Shown here piece after piece: positions 35,791 through 41,220 of a stretch of DNA of 64,000 bases. Numbering within the stretch: position 1 is the first letter of the stretch; each line of letters starts with the position of its first letter. Origin of the DNA: Candidatus Binatia bacterium (GTDB lineage Bacteria; Desulfobacterota; Binatia; UBA9968; JAJDTQ01); contig OY762897.2 of assembly GCA_963666515.2 (NCBI GenBank), positions 768,001 through 832,000 of the forward strand, written 5' to 3'. Under the pieces are notes generated by a model. That model was not told the origin of the DNA. It saw nothing but the letters and a program-made list of their open reading frames with translations, and ran no database searches. The position numbers were made by a program, and so were the translations under genes.

Positions 35791-36555
35791 TCAGTGCAGG
35801 TTGGCCCCGCCGTTCACGAGAATCGACTGGCCGGTGACGAAGGCGCTCAGGTCCGAAAGGAGGTACAGCGCGGTGCCCACCACGTCCTCGGGTTTCTCGA
35901 TGCGCTGCAGCAGGCGCTTGGCCGCTGACCGTTCGTAGTCCTCCAGAGCGGCGGCCGTGGGCTCCGGCTCGCTGGCGGTGGAGCCCGGCGCCAGCGTGTT
36001 CACCCGGATGTTGTCGGGGCCCAGCTCGCGGGCGAGCACCCGGCTGAAGCCCACCACCGCCGCCTTGGACACCACGTAGTGCATCATGCCGCCGCCGCCG
36101 TTGTAGGCCATGTTGGAGGCGATGTTGACGATGCTACCCTGGCGGCGCTCCTGCATGGCGGGGGCCACCGCGCGGCTGCACAGCCACAGCCCCTTGACGT
36201 TCACGGCCATTACCCGGTCCCACTCATCTTCCTGGATGTCCTGGAAACCCGAGCGCGTCACCGGCACGCTCATGAAGACCGCGGCGTTGTTGACCAATCC
36301 GTCGATCCGTCCGAAGGCTTCGAGGGTGGCCTCGGCCATGGCCCGGCAACTCGAAGAGTCCGCCACGTCCGTCTGGAGCCCGAGGCCCCGGCCGCCTTCG
36401 CGCGCTACCTCCCCGGCCACGGACTCGGCGGCGGCCCCGTCGATGTCCGCGGCCACCGGGATGCCGCCCTCCCGCGCGATGCCCAGGCAATAGGCGCGGC
36501 CGATGCCGTTGCCTCCTCCGGTGACGATGACGACTTTCTGATCCAGCAGACCCAT
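35791..36555 (-). CDS. Short-chain dehydrogenase/reductase
   Basis: TGGGNGIG, LVNNAA, YVVSK, IRVNTLAPG. Confidence 0.92.
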   Translation of the reverse strand: MGLLDQKVVIVTGGGNGIGRAYCLGIAREGGIPVAADIDGAAAESVAGEVAREGGRGLGLQTDVADSSSCRAMAEATLEAFGRIDGLVNNAAVFMSVPVTRSGFQDIQEDEWDRVMAVNVKGLWLCSRAVAPAMQERRQGSIVNIASNMAYNGGGGMMHYVVSKAAVVGFSRVLARELGPDNIRVNTLAPGSTASEPEPTAAALEDYERSAAKRLLQRIEKPEDVVGTALYLLSDLSAFVTGQSILVNGGANLH

Positions 36556-36681
36556 GATCGTTCCTTTCTTCGCGGACACGCGCGTAGAACCTCGCGGCAG
36601 GTTGCAACCATCGGGATTCCTTGTCAAGGCAGCCCTCGGCTGCAAGCCGCACCCATCACCGTGCGTCCTCCCCACCCCAAC

Positions 36682-36713
36682 CCCCTGGACCCCGGGTCAA
36701 GCCCAGGGTGACG
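36682..36713. repeat. Palindromic repeat family B (CTGGACCCCGGGTCAAGCCCAGGGTGACG)
   Basis: Inverted relative of the copy at 38122-38177. Confidence 0.7.
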
Positions 36714-36765
36714 TGAACGTCGGCCACCTCTTCTACAATACCGCCCCGATTGCTAGTTTGTCCGT

Positions 36766-37215
36766 ATGGACCATCATGCAAATCTCCTTGAACGGAACCA
36801 GGACATCAGGGACCTGCTCGCCTCCGTCCATCGCATAGCCGTGCTCGGAATCAAGACCGAGCAGCAGGCATCCCAGCCTGCATTCTACGTGCCGCGGTAC
36901 ATGCACCGCGCGGGTTTCGACGTGATCCCCGTGCCCGTGTACTACCCGGAGGTGACGGAGATTCTCGGCAAGACGGTGTACCGCCGGCTGGCGGACATCC
37001 CCGGCGCGGTGGACTTGGTGAACGTGTTCCGGCGTCCGCAAGACATCGAGCCGCACCTCAATGACCTGCTGGCCGCGAAACCCGCGGCGGTGTGGTTCCA
37101 GTCCGGCATCCGCCATCAGGCGGTGGCCGAGACGCTGGCGCGGGCGGGCATCAAGGTGGTCCAGGACCGCTGACTCATGGTGGAACACCGGTCGCCGGCG
37201 GCGACCATCCCATAA
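36766..37215 (+). CDS. CoA-binding (YccU-like) protein, probable selenoprotein (UGA at 37171-37173)
   Basis: IAVLG, VDLVNVFR, AVWFQSGI; reads VVQDR-TGA-LMVEHR where the family has DRC; next stop TAA 37215; hairpin follows the TGA. Confidence 0.8.
37174..37213 (+). promoter_or_regulatory. Candidate bacterial SECIS element
   Basis: GGTCGCC-GGC-GGCGACC (37190-37206), loop 23 nt after the UGA. Confidence 0.65.
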
Positions 37216-37231
37216 CCCTCTCCGGCCTGAC

Positions 37232-38110
37232 TCAACCCAGGGCCAGAATCCAGCACAGCAACACGGCCGCGGCCCCCAGGACGCCGATCCTGAGCTGCAT
37301 GCGTGCGTTCTCCGGATGGTCCGCGGTGGCGGCCCGCGCGCCGCCCACGGCTCCGCCCGCGGCCAGCCCCCAGAAGTGCGCCCACAGGTCCACGCGCTGG
37401 CCGCCGGTGCCGAGCATGCCGAGAATCGCCAGTCCGGCGGCCAGCGGCACCCAGGCCCGCCGTCCCCGCAGCCCGATGCGCCGCCGCCGCACCACCCCCG
37501 TCCCGCCCAGTACGCCCAGCGCGCCGAAGACCGCGGTGGAGGCTCCCACCGAGATGTGGTCGAAGCCGTAGGACCACGCGTTGCAGAAGTTCCCCAGCGC
37601 GCCCGCGCCCAGCACCAGGGCGGCCCCGACCCCCGGGCCTTCGGACCGGCAGACCGCGGTCAGGAAGAACACCATGGCCACCGCGTTGGAGCCCACGTGG
37701 GGCAGATCGGCGTGCAGGGTAAGGGCGGTGACCGTGCGCCACAGCTCGCCGCCGAGGATCAACTCGGCGGAGGCGGCGCCGCGCGCGACCCAAGGCACCA
37801 ACCCGTGGGTCCAAGCCTCAACGAAGAAGAACGCCAGCAGCCCCGTCGCCACCCCCACGCCGGTGTAGAGGGGCGCCTTGCCGGTCCACACCTGCTCTTC
37901 GGGCGCCGTGGCGCGGGTCTCGCTCTCGTAGTCCCAGAGTTCGGTTACCGCCTGCTCCAGGTGCCGCGAGGGAACCGACAGCACCCAGCCGTTGGAGGTG
38001 CGCTGCAGACGCGGAGCCAAGCCCTCCGCTTCCAGCACCAGCGCCCATTCCTCGGCCCGGCGCAGGTCCGTCGTCCTGCGTACGATGATTTCCCGTCTCG
38101 CCTGCATCAT
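37232..38110 (-). CDS. Rhomboid family intramembrane serine protease
   Basis: WRTVTALTLHAD..HVGSN, VGASTAVFG, AHFWG. Confidence 0.9.
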   Translation of the reverse strand: MMQARREIIVRRTTDLRRAEEWALVLEAEGLAPRLQRTSNGWVLSVPSRHLEQAVTELWDYESETRATAPEEQVWTGKAPLYTGVGVATGLLAFFFVEAWTHGLVPWVARGAASAELILGGELWRTVTALTLHADLPHVGSNAVAMVFFLTAVCRSEGPGVGAALVLGAGALGNFCNAWSYGFDHISVGASTAVFGALGVLGGTGVVRRRRIGLRGRRAWVPLAAGLAILGMLGTGGQRVDLWAHFWGLAAGGAVGGARAATADHPENARMQLRIGVLGAAAVLLCWILALG

Positions 38111-38121
38111 GGCGTTCTACA

Positions 38122-38177
38122 ACGTCACCTCCGGGCTTGACCCGGATCAAGTCCGGAGCAGACTCCGGGGTCCAGGG
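38122..38177. repeat. Palindromic repeat family B with internal expansion
   Basis: ACGTCACCTCCGGGCTTGACCCGG...GGTCCAGGG, reverse-complement relative of 36682-36713. Confidence 0.7.
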
Positions 38178-38281
38178 ATGGGGCGAGCGGGCCAGAATGA
38201 CGGGTGCCGGCATTCGGATCCTGGCGCATGGGACGTAGATACAAGACGCGACCAGCGGCTTCAACTTCCGCCGGCGCGGCC

Positions 38282-39145
38282 TCAGCGCCAGGTGATGAGC
38301 ACGATCCCGGTGACGATCAGCACCGCCCCGGCGGCCACCCGGGCGTTTACGGTCTCCAGGTCCCGCAGGAACAGGGCGCTGAAGAGCACGATGAAGAGCG
38401 GGTTGGTGTTGATGAGCGGCACCACCACGGATACGTCCCCCTCGCTCAGGGCGATGTAGCCCAGAAGCTGGGCGGTGGCCGATACCACCGCGGCGGTGCC
38501 GTAGAACGGCAGGCACTTCCGGTCCCCCTGGAAGGTGGCCCGCAACTGGCCCGTGGCCGCCAGGCTGAGGGAGAACACCGCCAGCGACGTGGTGATGGTG
38601 ACGGCGGTGGCGACGTAAGGGTTGGGCATGATCAGCAGCCCGGTCTTGCGGAAGTTCTGCGAGATGGCCGTGAGGAAGGCCGCCCCCAGCGGGTAGGCCA
38701 GGTGAATGGCCTTCCACTCGCTCTCCCCCTCGCGCCGGGTGGAGGTGAGCCACACCCCCACCACGCTCAGGAGCGATCCCAGGTAGACCGCGGCTTCGGG
38801 CCGCTCGCCCAGGAAGGTGAACGCCAGGGCGATGGCGAACAGCGGCGTCACGCTGCGCACCGGGCCGGCGCGCGACGCGCCCAGGCGGACGATGCCCGTG
38901 TAGTGGAGGAAGCGGACGATGGCGGGCTGGATCAGCCCGCTGATGATGAAGTACCAGGTGGCGTCGGTGTAGAGCAGGCTCAGCGGAAAGAACAGCCAGA
39001 TAGCAGTCCACAGCGCCACCGTGCTCAGCACGAACCCCATGAGCGCGGCCAGCGCCACGCTGGCGTAGCGCGAGCCCCGGCGCACCAGGATCGCCTCGGA
39101 GCCCCACGCCACCGCCGAGGTCAGGGCTAGGAACTCGGGACCCAT
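38282..39145 (-). CDS. DMT/EamA family transporter
   Basis: About 10 TM segments in two repeats; PLFAIALAFTFLGE and PLFIVLFSALFLRDLE. Confidence 0.9.
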   Translation of the reverse strand: MGPEFLALTSAVAWGSEAILVRRGSRYASVALAALMGFVLSTVALWTAIWLFFPLSLLYTDATWYFIISGLIQPAIVRFLHYTGIVRLGASRAGPVRSVTPLFAIALAFTFLGERPEAAVYLGSLLSVVGVWLTSTRREGESEWKAIHLAYPLGAAFLTAISQNFRKTGLLIMPNPYVATAVTITTSLAVFSLSLAATGQLRATFQGDRKCLPFYGTAAVVSATAQLLGYIALSEGDVSVVVPLINTNPLFIVLFSALFLRDLETVNARVAAGAVLIVTGIVLITWR

Positions 39146-39170
39146 GACGACCGGCGTTGAAGCGTGAGAC

Positions 39171-40019
39171 TCACTCCAGCACGAGCGGGGTGTCGTCGCG
39201 GTTGGCCCACTCGCCCATGGAGCCGTCGTAGTTGCGCGCCCGCTCGTAGCCCAGCAGTGTCAGGACGAAGACTCCGTGCGCCGCACGGATGCCGCCCTGT
39301 CAATAGGTGACCACTTCCTTGTCCGGCGGAACCCCCGCCTGCTCCAGCAGGCTCCGAAGCTCCCCGGCCGGTTTCAGGGTCTTGTACGGCTTGTCCTGGA
39401 GGAAGTTGAGCCATTCCAGGTGTACCGCGCCCGGGATGCGGCCCGCCCGCTTGTTGCCGCGGTCGTTGGCGCCCGTCCACTCGCCGTCCGAGCGCACGTC
39501 GAGGAACATCACGTCCGGGTTGCCGACGTTGGCCGTCCCGTAGTCCAGCGTGCACACGAGGTCCGGGTTCGCCTTGGGGTTGAACACCGCGCCATCGGGC
39601 TTCGGCACGTCCAGGGTCATCGGCCGTCCCTCGCCGAACCACTTCTGCCAGCCGCCGTTGAGCACGGTCACCTCGGTATGGCCGTAGTAGTTCAGCACCC
39701 ACCACAGGCGCGCGGCCCACAGCGACCCGTTGCTGTCGTAGGCCACCACCCGCGTTCCGTCGCCGATGCCCAGGCTCTCCATCACTTCCTTCGCCGTGTC
39801 CGGCGGCGCCACCAGGGGGTACTTGCGCGGTTCCTTGTCGTATCCCGGCTGCTTGATGTAGTGGTGCACGCGGATACCGACCGCGCCCTTGATGTGAGCC
39901 CGGCGGTAGACGTCGAACGGATCGCAGTCCACGATGCGGATGTCCGGGTCGTCGAGATGCTGCTCCAGCCAGTCTGTCTCCGTCAGCAGCTCCGGGTGCG
40001 CGTAGCCTTCCTCTGCCAT
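39171..40019 (-). CDS. Two-domain rhodanese/sulfurtransferase, probable selenoprotein (UGA at 39302-39300)
   Basis: GHTEVTVLNGG, FLDVRS, GRIPGA; active site VVTY-TGA-QGGIRAA, then ARNYDGSMGEW signature to TGA 39171. Confidence 0.9.
39261..39299 (-). promoter_or_regulatory. Candidate bacterial SECIS element
   Basis: CAGGGCG/CGTCCTG lower stem plus TCCGTGC-GGC-GCACGGA upper stem, loop 17 nt after the UGA. Confidence 0.75.
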
Positions 40020-40149
40020 GGGTCCACCTCCTGGTGTGGCGTGTCGAATCTCTAACAGATCGAACGGCGGCGCGCGAACGCGCCCGGCTTGAACTGTCGC
40101 GCCGTCTTGGGCGAGAATGGCACACTGCAATCTATCGGAGGGAAACGAC

Positions 40150-41220
40150 ATGTCCATGTTCATCGACGCCGACGCGCACGTGATCGAGACCGAGCAGACC
40201 TGGGAGTTCATGGAGGAAGAGGACAAGCGCTTCGCGCCGGACCTGCTGGTCTCGGAGCGAAGCGGCCTCCGCTACTGGCGCATCGACGAGCGGGTGGTGC
40301 CCAACACCAACATCGGCCTCAACACCACCGCCGAGTCCCGCGAGCTGGCCGACGTGTCGGCGCGCATCGCCCACATGGACGAGCTGTCGGTGGACGTCCA
40401 GGTCATCTATCCCACGCTGTTCCTGCGGCCGCTCACCGCCCGGGCCGACGTGGAGCGGGCGCTCTGCCGGGGCTACAACCGCTGGCTGGCGGAGATCTGG
40501 AAGCAGGGGGGCGGCCGCATCCGCTGGGTGGTGCTGGCGCCCGTCCGGTCCATGGACCGGGCCATCGAGGAAATCCGCTTCGGCAAGGCCAACGGCGCCT
40601 GCGGGGTCTTCATACATGGCTTCGAGGGCGAGCGGCTGCTCTCGGACGACACCTTCTTCCCCATCTACCAGGAGGCCAGCGACCTCGACATGCCCATCTG
40701 CATCCACGCGGGCGGCGGCAACCTCGACCACTACGACCTGTTCGCCCAGGACGTGTTCTCGCGCTTCAAGCTCCCCGCGGTGGGCGCGTTCAACAACCTC
40801 ATCTACAAGGGCATCCCCGACCTGTTTCCGAAGCTTCGCTGGTGCTTCGTGGAGACCACCTCCCAGTGGGTCCCCTACGCGCTCAACGACCTGCAGATCC
40901 GCACCACCGCCGAGCTGACCTTTCGCCGGAAACACGCCGACAGCAAGCTGGCCGGCGTGCGCGGCGCGCCCCGGGAGCTGGGCGACGGCAACCTGCTCAA
41001 GGACAACCGCATCTACGTGGCCTGCCAGACCACCGACGACCTCCCTTACGTGATCCAGCACGCCGGCGAGGACAACATCATCGTCGGCACCGACTACGGC
41101 CACGCCGACTACTCCAACGACATGGAGGCCATCGCCACGCTGGCGAAGGAGGGCGTACTCGCCGAAGGCGTGGGCGACAAGATACTGAGCGACAACCCCC
41201 GGCGGCTGTATGCCCTCTAG
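40150..41220 (+). CDS. Amidohydrolase_2 family protein
   Basis: IDADAHVIETE, ICIH, VGTDYGH; close paralogue of 34479..35567. Confidence 0.9.
   Translation: MSMFIDADAHVIETEQTWEFMEEEDKRFAPDLLVSERSGLRYWRIDERVVPNTNIGLNTTAESRELADVSARIAHMDELSVDVQVIYPTLFLRPLTARADVERALCRGYNRWLAEIWKQGGGRIRWVVLAPVRSMDRAIEEIRFGKANGACGVFIHGFEGERLLSDDTFFPIYQEASDLDMPICIHAGGGNLDHYDLFAQDVFSRFKLPAVGAFNNLIYKGIPDLFPKLRWCFVETTSQWVPYALNDLQIRTTAELTFRRKHADSKLAGVRGAPRELGDGNLLKDNRIYVACQTTDDLPYVIQHAGEDNIIVGTDYGHADYSNDMEAIATLAKEGVLAEGVGDKILSDNPRRLYAL

Follow-up and report, generated by a model that had tools for sequence, protein, structure and literature searches.

Two hairpins with a shared C-GGC-G apex behind in-frame UGA codons in a Binatia bacterium are very probably ordinary bacterial SECIS elements

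In the window, the 64,000-nucleotide stretch of Candidatus Binatia DNA analyzed here, two genes carry an in-frame TGA followed by a hairpin with a C-GGC-G apex, and these hairpins are in all likelihood ordinary bacterial SECIS elements behind recoded UGA codons. Sec then replaces the Cys of the DRC motif in a CoA-binding protein and the catalytic Cys of a rhodanese, and the shared apex is one form of a general loop rule rather than a lineage code. The observations behind this assignment are the Sec machinery of the genome, Sec/Cys pairs among homologs, the co-occurrence of hairpin and TGA, synonymous constraint, and enrichment of the motif at Sec sites; SelB would be expected to bind, and Sec to be inserted, at both UGAs. 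The apex that the two hairpins share is genuine and under selection, yet it follows the textbook loop rule and does not represent a new recognition code. The organism, which is known from MAGs only, is selenoprotein-rich, with at least 19 selenoprotein genes.

The two hairpins read exactly as the original prediction had described them, with different stem sequences, the same 7-bp length, and the same apex. On the + strand, GGUCGCC-GGC-GGCGACC (37190-37206) follows the in-frame TGA at 37171-37173 with a gap of 16 nt to the hairpin and 23 nt to the loop. On the - strand, UCCGUGC-GGC-GCACGGA (39289-39273) follows the in-frame TGA at 39302-39300 with gaps of 10 and 17 nt, respectively. Each has a perfect 7-bp stem and a GGC triloop closed by a C-G pair, and both 7-bp/3-nt hairpins are contained in the minimum-energy fold (RNAfold). 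The folding energies of nt +6 to +50, -16.8 kcal/mol for the CoA-binding gene and -16.4 kcal/mol for the rhodanese gene, are no better than those of shuffled sequence. In 60-nt windows, the + strand hairpin has z = 0.16 (105 of 200 shuffles equally stable) and the - strand hairpin z = -1.28 (28 of 200), so stability alone is not unusual at the genome GC content of 65.8%. An Rfam scan of positions 36500-40300 at E up to 10 returned five weak, unrelated matches, none of which lies on either hairpin.

The first gene (36766-37215, + strand), when read through its TGA, comprises 149 codons with Sec at residue 136 and a TAA stop at 37213-37215; 13 codons continue past the TGA, where public gene calls end the gene early. 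The product matches CoA_binding_2 (PF13380) at 117.1 bits (cut-off 22.8) over profile positions 2-115 of 116 and residues 23-141, a match that spans U136, and no NCBIfam model matches. The Sec-UGA (37171-37173) stands in place of the Cys of the DRC motif (VVQDR-U-LMVEHR). Among 29 ortholog loci, the same codon is TGA in 10 and TGC or TGT in 19, with the in-frame sequence LMV[ED]HR kept behind it, and Cys is found at the DRC codon in 66 of 68 scorable loci from genome contigs of relatives. The solved homologs 1iuk, 2duw, and 2d59, which align through DRCLMVEH, also have Cys at the DRC/NRC site. All 10 TGA forms, and none of the 19 Cys forms, have a hairpin of 6-7 bp whose triloop begins with G. 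The loop is GGC in five genomes of the genus, in which the entire GGUCGCC-GGC-GGCGACC hairpin is identical across all TGA-bearing orthologs, and GUU in five genomes of another family, in which the hairpin is CCGGCG-GUU-CGCCGG. The C-terminal tail SPAAT(I/F/V)P is likewise kept only in the Sec forms, and the RNA therefore appears to shape the peptide rather than the reverse. This series of Sec and Cys orthologs, with a hairpin exactly where there is a TGA, constitutes a clean natural experiment on a SECIS built into a coding tail.

The second gene (39171-40019, - strand) encodes a two-domain, SseA-like rhodanese sulfurtransferase of 282 codons when read through its TGA. Counted from the ATG start, Sec is residue 240; the frame continues for 42 codons past its TGA, and the stop is the TGA at 39173-39171. 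PF00581 matches in two stretches (E = 6.5e-37), and the NCBIfam 3-mercaptopyruvate sulfurtransferase model scores 112.8 bits, under its cut-off of 250. The Sec-UGA (39302-39300) lies at the catalytic Cys of the second rhodanese domain (VVTY-U-QGGIRA), and a Cys homolog in a relative (L087) reads TYCQGGYRAAH at this position. The TGA is carried by all 27 genomes of the genus with a rhodanese match, the present genome and 26 relatives. Around the upper hairpin, the minimum-energy fold adds a lower 8-bp helix (CAGGGCGG / UCGUCCUG), giving an extended SECIS at 39261-39299, and this region has the lowest synonymous variation in the gene. Synonymous codon entropy from U+1 to U+14 is 0.129 bits, as against an average of 0.554 for the gene and 0.846 for the codons immediately upstream, and this stretch ranks third lowest of 260. 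Across the rhodanese SECIS, 96.7% of pair cells are paired and four pairs are changed on both sides, a result reached by none of 500 shuffles; this covariation represents few events, as the genus sequences are near-identical and three of the four double changes come from one divergent sequence. In a Sec-rhodanese from another family, with 42% identity, three of the seven upper-stem pairs are changed on both sides and the GGC loop is kept. In the lower helix, 95% of cells are paired, and at one pair C-G has become U-A in L082 through a double change. In one member of the genus, L074, a G-to-U change breaks one pair of the upper stem.

The Sec-rhodanese gene sits 2 kb from the CoA-binding gene in most members of the genus. 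In the window, a gene for a rhomboid-family membrane protein (37232-38110, - strand; PF01694, E = 9.2e-17) lies between the two selenoprotein genes, and an EamA-type transporter gene (38282-39145, - strand; PF00892, E = 7.7e-27) lies directly downstream of the rhodanese gene.

The genome encodes the machinery for selenocysteine: SelB (370.9 bits), SelA (586.9 bits), SelD (381.4 bits), and tRNA-Sec (73.1 bits) all score over curated cut-offs. For SelB, the alignment with the E. coli protein covers residues 2-602 of 614 (E = 1.1e-81) and includes the last C-terminal winged helix. The selD gene itself has one in-frame TGA, which is spanned by the match to TIGR00476. In addition to the two genes of the window, TGA occupies a known Sec position in at least 17 others, a set that is not exhaustive and that was chosen from peptides, blind to hairpins, before Pfam confirmation; a Pfam domain spans the TGA in 11 of them, and in four GRDB-type genes the match stops just short of it. 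A DsbA-like selenoprotein gene was re-checked and is counted in the set. None of the 32 matches to N-terminal motifs of the UxxC/CxxU type was convincing, and in an own-genome paralog BLAST of 1693 TGA-junction peptides shadow frames dominate, with just three clear Sec/Cys pairs. A literature search joining Binatia and selenocysteine returned nothing.

The original prediction had proposed known selenoprotein genes as a reference and ordinary stops and random positions as a background. Among the named references, the formate dehydrogenase alpha gene of this genome has no in-frame TGA and is therefore unusable as a reference SECIS, and selD carries GUC, not GGC. The background comparison separates Sec sites clearly: a C-GGC-G hairpin with its loop 17-32 nt past the TGA occurs at 4 of 18 of them versus 1 of 3166 ordinary TGA stops (Fisher p = 3.6e-9), where two of the four sites are the window's own and the independent count is 2 of 16. 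At random positions the same hairpin occurs 3 times in 20000, and it follows 1 of 2603 TAA/TAG stops. The equal frequency that the original prediction had named as a refutation is thus not observed. In both strands of the genome (2 x 4.67 Mb), the apex occurs on a perfect stem of at least 6 bp at 122 sites and of at least 7 bp at 36. A scan of the 122 hairpins for an upstream coding-frame TGA gave seven matches, four of them real selenoprotein sites; the matches at C1:187393, 1321590, and 2034929 are shadow frames or true stops.

Loop sequences vary widely among the 19 Sec sites. The exact apex is found at four, namely the CoA-binding gene, the rhodanese gene, and two GrdB-like genes, and the other 15 include GGA (twice), GUG, CGUGA, GUA, GUC, GGUC, AGUU, AGUUG, CGUGU, and CGGGC. 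GU-type loops account for eight of the 19, among them that of selD, whose 7-bp hairpin GGUGCAG-GUC-CUGCACC is presumably much like the E. coli fdhF element. Three sites (Prx1, Grx-like, and small rhodanese) have no clear consensus hairpin. A hairpin of at least 5 bp with a loop starting (N)G[G/U], 16-33 nt past the UGA, is present at 16 of 19 Sec sites versus 62 of 1500 ordinary TGA stops (p = 4e-19), which places the loop letters under selection.

Three other explanations of the shared apex were weighed. That C-GGC-G is a lineage-specific SelB motif replacing the E. coli-type GU loop, as originally predicted, is very improbable. The apex is indeed exact at 4 of 19 Sec sites, nearly absent after ordinary stops, and found again, on a different stem, in a Sec-rhodanese from a second family within the order; however, 15 of the 19 sites carry other loops, the CoA-binding gene of the sister family has GUU, the apex falls within the general model as given in the figure legend of PMC13188914, and the SelB C-terminal winged helix, which the prediction had singled out, aligns with that of E. 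coli. The suggestion that the motif could be used to find the organism's other selenoproteins is accordingly weak, as it recovers 4 of 19 genes. It is highly improbable that the apex is mainly a by-product of coding in a GC-rich genome, with SelB needing a stable hairpin and no particular loop letters. Both pentamers share a codon phase and read xCG-GCG, Pro-Ala in the CoA-binding gene and Ala-Ala in the rhodanese, and with so much GC, GCG-type alanine codons should be frequent; in the GrdB-like genes, in contrast, the GGC of the apex is read in a different phase, as a Gly codon, and the restriction of the SPAAT(I/F/V)P tail to Sec forms also argues against a coding origin.

A further reading takes both hairpins for GC-rich palindromes arisen by chance, or for elements of terminator or REP type, and treats the TGAs as true stops or as nonsense mutations of recent date; it is scarcely credible and already contradicted. 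The GC content, the 60-nt folds that are no stabler than shuffles, and the location of the CoA-binding hairpin between convergent genes would be in keeping with such an origin, and a REP-like family, GGGCGACC-NNN-GGTCGCCC, is present in 67 copies, some with a GGC loop. The CoA-binding hairpin, however, has its arms in reverse order relative to this family, with just two such sequences genome-wide, and neither hairpin has a U run behind it. Protein sequence is conserved in frame past both TGAs, across two bacterial families, the hairpin follows TGA and not Cys forms of the CoA-binding gene (10 of 10 versus 0 of 19), and the motif occurs at only 1 of 3166 ordinary TGA stops. In agreement with the earlier argument against two chance nonsense mutations, neither TGA is such a mutation.

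For the preferred reading, ordinary SECIS elements behind recoded UGAs, the following mechanism may be envisaged. SelB with Sec-tRNA(Sec) would bind a small, G-rich apical loop and bring selenocysteine to the A site of the ribosome, where the UGA is read. In the first gene, the conserved DRC Cys of the CoA_binding_2 protein would have become Sec, and in the second, the catalytic Cys of the two-domain rhodanese. C-GGC-G would be an allowed form of the loop rule, which asks for G or U after a G in the first or second position of the loop, and the two apices would be alike because a common SelB requirement acts on GC-rich coding sequence, not because of a special lineage code.

The CoA-binding gene seems to represent a hitherto unlisted selenoprotein family, judging by the sources compared. 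PF13380, YccU, and CoA-binding do not appear in the selenoprotein family table of PMC13188914 or in the main text of PMC12013277, and full-text literature searches did not find CoA_binding_2 as a selenoprotein; a search on PH1109 and CoA returned nothing useful. For a common protein without an assigned role, the Sec form offers an initial clue to function, in that it points to a reactive cysteine. A fuller proposal, which has about an even chance of being correct, is that CoA_binding_2 (YccU/TT1466-type) is a previously unlisted selenoprotein family that arose in at least two Binatia clades, each with its own SECIS (GGC or GUU), and that Sec at the invariant DRC Cys marks a redox-active or catalytic thiol in this widespread family. 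The substrate of such a protein might be bound CoA, in the form of its thiol or persulfide, and the Sec-rhodanese could be a partner in this reaction.

The rhodanese belongs to a known selenoprotein type: similar to the rhodanese-like selenoproteins with UxxG (PF00581) in the table of PMC13188914, it has Sec for the catalytic Cys, and U-Q-G-G fits UxxG. It differs in being a two-domain, SseA-like protein, and may correspond to either form 2 or form 4 of that table. The CoA-binding protein resembles the YccU-type proteins of PF13380 (TT1466, 1iuk; PH1109, 2d59; and 2duw) in its full-length domain match and in the DRC/NRC position, and differs in that the conserved Cys is Sec. For the hairpins, the bSECISearch model of Zhang and Gladyshev, as given in the legend of Fig. 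2 of PMC13188914, is N1(0-1)G[G|U]N N2(0-1) with N1 and N2 paired, a loop of 3-9 nt, a stem of 4-16 bp, and a spacing of 16-37 nt, and the energy threshold of the bacterial SECIS model is -7.5 kcal/mol or lower. In the same source, the consensus has a G at loop position 1 or 2, in most cases as N1-G-[G|U]-N-N2. Both hairpins agree with the model so described, lying within the ORF just past the UGA with a 3-nt loop, a 7-bp Watson-Crick stem, C-G-G-C-G, spacings of 23 and 17 nt, and energies in range. Relative to this consensus no structural difference is observed, GGC being the GG variant instead of GU. Compared with the E. coli fdhF SECIS, the triloops of the window hairpins have no U and there is no bulged U; the same machinery as that visualized with SelB on the ribosome (PDB 5lzb) would be expected to operate, with SelB aligning over its whole length.

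The CoA_binding_2 (PF13380) gene begins at 36766 on the forward strand, reaches an in-frame TGA at 37171–37173, and runs for 13 further codons (LMVEHRSPAATIP) until a TAA at 37213–37215; its Pfam match (117 bits, residues 23–141) includes the predicted selenocysteine (Sec), residue 136. The hairpin GGUCGCC-GGC-GGCGACC (37190–37206, forward strand) lies 16 nt behind this TGA. The two-domain rhodanese gene is on the reverse strand, with its ATG at 40019. Its first TGA (39302–39300) occupies the exact position of the catalytic cysteine (VVTY-U-QGGIRA), and 42 more codons lead to a second TGA at 39173–39171. The rhodanese hairpin, UCCGUGC-GGC-GCACGGA (39289–39273, reverse strand), starts 10 nt behind the first TGA and is enclosed by a lower 8-bp helix. 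Direct reading of the sequence bears out both hairpins of the original prediction to the base. A rhomboid and an EamA transporter gene separate the two genes, and SDR and amidohydrolase genes flank this group of four.

Gene content indicates that the organism decodes UGA as selenocysteine. selA, selB, and selD form a single cluster (C1:4043412–4047708, C1 being the contig of the genome under study, G000), selD carries its own in-frame TGA, and tRNA-Sec (C1:1984970–1985060) scores 73.1 bits; all four exceed the curated cut-offs. Immediately upstream of the tRNA gene is a molybdopterin oxidoreductase gene (whole region, 1983254–1985060) that has formate-dehydrogenase-like matches and is free of in-frame stops. 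The best FdhA (C1:2408443–2410494) is a Cys form as well, and a search of formate dehydrogenase alpha in this genome for an in-frame TGA found none.

Further Sec genes were sought without use of hairpins. In-frame TGAs with an open frame on both sides numbered 39274, and 260 had the best coding potential among six frames on both sides; the 260 junction peptides were inspected by reading, and one more gene was taken from paralog BLAST. Pfam matches were obtained for all 16 picks, the domain extending across the TGA in 11: four AhpC/TSA-type peroxiredoxins (Prx), two OsmC-like proteins, and one each of GrdA, a UGSC-family protein, a glutaredoxin-like (Grx-like) protein, a small rhodanese, and a DUF3179 protein. 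In three GrdB-type proteins, the GRDB model stops just ahead of Sec, as it does in a fourth, GRDB-like protein whose match is weak (17.9 bits against a cut-off of 22). The TGA of selD is spanned by a TIGR00476 match, and a DsbA-like U-P-W-C gene has a PF01323 match with one TGA inside (codon at C1:3385692). Including the DsbA-like gene and the two window genes, the set holds 19 Sec sites. At least 17 further selenoprotein genes thus lie outside the window, namely, the 11 with spanning domains, the three GrdB-type genes, the weak GRDB-like gene, the DsbA-like gene, and selD (C1 positions, e.g., 3528360, 317837, 970182, 689887, 2127487, 4331549, 3156448, 1114737, 1208522, 1718829, 3054816, 914845, 860917, 3796813, 2384013, 3385692, and 4044305). 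This selenoproteome is large for a MAG lineage, and a literature search found no paper joining Binatia with selenocysteine. An in-frame TGA in a transposase-like ORF, at C1:2782644 (forward strand), is probably not Sec: three paralogous copies have Trp at that position (E = 2e-109), so a nonsense mutation from TGG to TGA in a single IS copy is the likeliest reading.

The Sec form of the CoA_binding_2 gene can be followed across relatives. Orthologs at E <= 1e-10 occur in 34 of 61 genomes (G000 and 60 relatives), and 29 loci were extracted for comparison. VVQDR-[C/U]-LMV[ED]HR is kept in all 29; the codon at the Sec position is TGA in 10 and TGC or TGT in 19. Five TGA forms, that of G000 included, belong to the genus under study (g1), and all carry an identical GGUCGCC-GGC-GGCGACC. 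The other five, from genus g5 of another family, all carry CCGGCG-GUU-CGCCGG, 3 nt closer to the UGA; such a hairpin is found in none of the 19 Cys forms. The g5 loci (L051–L055) belong to the same order, and the intervening lineages have Cys, a distribution that suggests either two origins of Sec or many reversions to Cys. Only Sec forms conserve the tail SPAAT(I/F/V)P; the RNA therefore appears to shape the C-terminal peptide. Among the best 80 loci in genome_contigs, 66 have Cys, two have TGA (both Binatia), and 12 do not match the pattern; Cys is also kept in the solved homologs 1iuk, 2duw, and 2d59. As a modest by-product, the Sec form would point to a reactive cysteine in the DRC motif of CoA_binding_2 proteins.

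By the sources covered here, CoA_binding_2 is probably a new selenoprotein family. The family table in PMC13188914 already has rhodanese with UxxG, DUF3179, UGSC, OsmC, DsbA, and Prx types; PF13380, YccU, and “CoA-binding” do not figure in it, “CoA” occurring three times, always in other names. The main text of the deep-Sep paper (PMC12013277) likewise has none of these three terms, and in the GOS paper (PMC2398784) 10 passages among 26 word-start matches to “CoA” come from sample tables or from words of the “coast” type. No NCBIfam model matches the protein, and a full-text literature search for selenoprotein with CoA-binding or PF13380 found nothing relevant. Among its best 120 homologs in a public protein collection, 15 are exactly 135 aa long, and all 14 that were fetched (five from NCBI records) end in VVQDR, i.e., at the TGA; current annotation therefore truncates this gene.

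The rhodanese TGA is present in all 27 genus genomes with a rhodanese match (G017 has no match). The 48 nt from the TGA onward are nearly invariant (mean column identity 98% over 28 aligned sequences, including divergent G032), despite genus proteins that are 83–93% identical. Synonymous codon entropy from U+1 to U+14 is 0.129 bits, the third lowest of 260 windows, whereas the gene averages 0.554 and the stretch immediately upstream reaches 0.846. In the 42% identical Sec-rhodanese of G032 (L086), from another family, f2, CGCGGGC-GGC-GCUCGCG stands at the same offset, with three of seven pairs altered on both sides and the GGC loop unchanged. Within the genus, one lower-helix pair of L082 is changed on both sides, from C-G to U-A, and in L074 a G-to-U change disrupts one upper-stem pair; the covariation comes from very few independent events. 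The two genes lie ~2–4.5 kb apart in 16 of 18 genus relatives having both (counted from positions 36766–40019 of the window and loci L030–L048 and L059–L085), which would be weak evidence of a functional link because the genomes are close kin.

At a genome GC of 65.8%, folding energy is uninformative: against dinucleotide shuffles, stability of the 60-nt windows is not greater (z = 0.16 and −1.28). The apex itself is rare. Across both strands of 4.67 Mb, perfect stems capped by C-GGC-G number 122 at >=6 bp and 36 at >=7 bp. With the loop 17–32 nt behind the TGA, the motif is found at 4/18 Sec sites versus 1/3166 ordinary TGA stops (Fisher p = 3.6e-9), 1/2603 TAA/TAG stops, and 3/20000 random positions; two of the four are the window's own sites, leaving an independent count of 2/16. 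The motif is thus far more frequent at Sec sites than at true stops or random positions. A REP-like palindrome family, GGGCGACC-NNN-GGTCGCCC, has 67 copies on C1, often in pairs ~50 nt apart (e.g., 42262, 42310, 75809, 75855, 185651, and 258412); the few with a GGC loop, a handful among the 122 occurrences, raise the motif background. The presence of Sec machinery, the Sec/Cys orthologs, the tracking of TGA by the hairpin, and this enrichment support both genes as selenoproteins with SECIS hairpins.

It had further been proposed that the shared 7-bp stem and apex represent a lineage-specific SelB recognition motif, and this is not supported. The GGC loop is found at only four of the 19 Sec sites: the CoA_binding_2 gene, the window rhodanese, and GrdB-like 1 and 2 (gaps from the UGA of 23, 17, 18, and 18 nt). 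The others are GGA in GrdB-like 3 and GrdA (18 and 26 nt), GUG in the UGSC-family protein (19 nt), CGUGA in GrdB-like 5 (17 nt), GGUACG and AGUUG in OsmC1 and OsmC2 (19 nt each), GUA in Prx2 (16 nt), GGUC in Prx-like 3 (17 nt), AGUU in Prx-like 4 (16 nt), CGUGU in the DUF3179 protein (20 nt), CGGGC in the DsbA-like protein (20 nt), CGGC and GUCC on weak hairpins in the Grx-like protein (18 nt) and small rhodanese (17 nt), and, without a fit, ACAAGGC in Prx1 (28 nt). The selD loop, proposed as a comparison, is GUC (33 nt) rather than GGC. GG- and GU-type loops are about equally frequent, and stems range from 6 to 11 bp, so that 7 bp is not special. A strict rule was applied, which asks for an MFE fold with >=5 contiguous pairs, a 3–9-nt loop that starts with (N)G[G/U], and 16–37 nt as the gap; 16/19 Sec sites pass it (p = 4e-19), versus 62/1500 ordinary TGA stops. 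SECIS elements in this organism thus follow a rule of a short, GC-rich stem tipped by G and then G or U.

The alignment of SelB with its E. coli counterpart (5lzb chain z) covers residues 2–602 of 614 (E = 1.1e-81) and takes in the last winged helix (RKYTIPVLEHFDRTGVT versus RKLAIQILEYFDRIGFT); nothing points to an altered mode of recognition. The shared apex is best explained as convergence onto a general rule rather than a private one. The pentamer reads CCG-GCG (Pro-Ala) in the CoA_binding_2 gene and GCG-GCG (Ala-Ala) in the window rhodanese, the same phase, xCG-GCG; in the GrdB-like genes, GGC is itself a Gly codon. A requirement of SelB for G[G/U], imposed on GC-rich codons, would yield the shared apex in both window genes. 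As given in a 2026 review (PMC13188914), the bacterial SECIS consensus has an upper stem of 4–16 bp, a spacing of 16–37 nt, an MFE of −7.5 kcal/mol or lower, and a loop of 3–9 nt with at least one G within the first two positions. Most loops take the form N1(0-1)G[G|U]N N2(0-1)N(0-2), in which N1 pairs with N2. Both window hairpins satisfy all structural criteria of this consensus. The pair with its shared apex is ordinary, C-G-G-C-G being a literal instance of the bacterial consensus as stated there.
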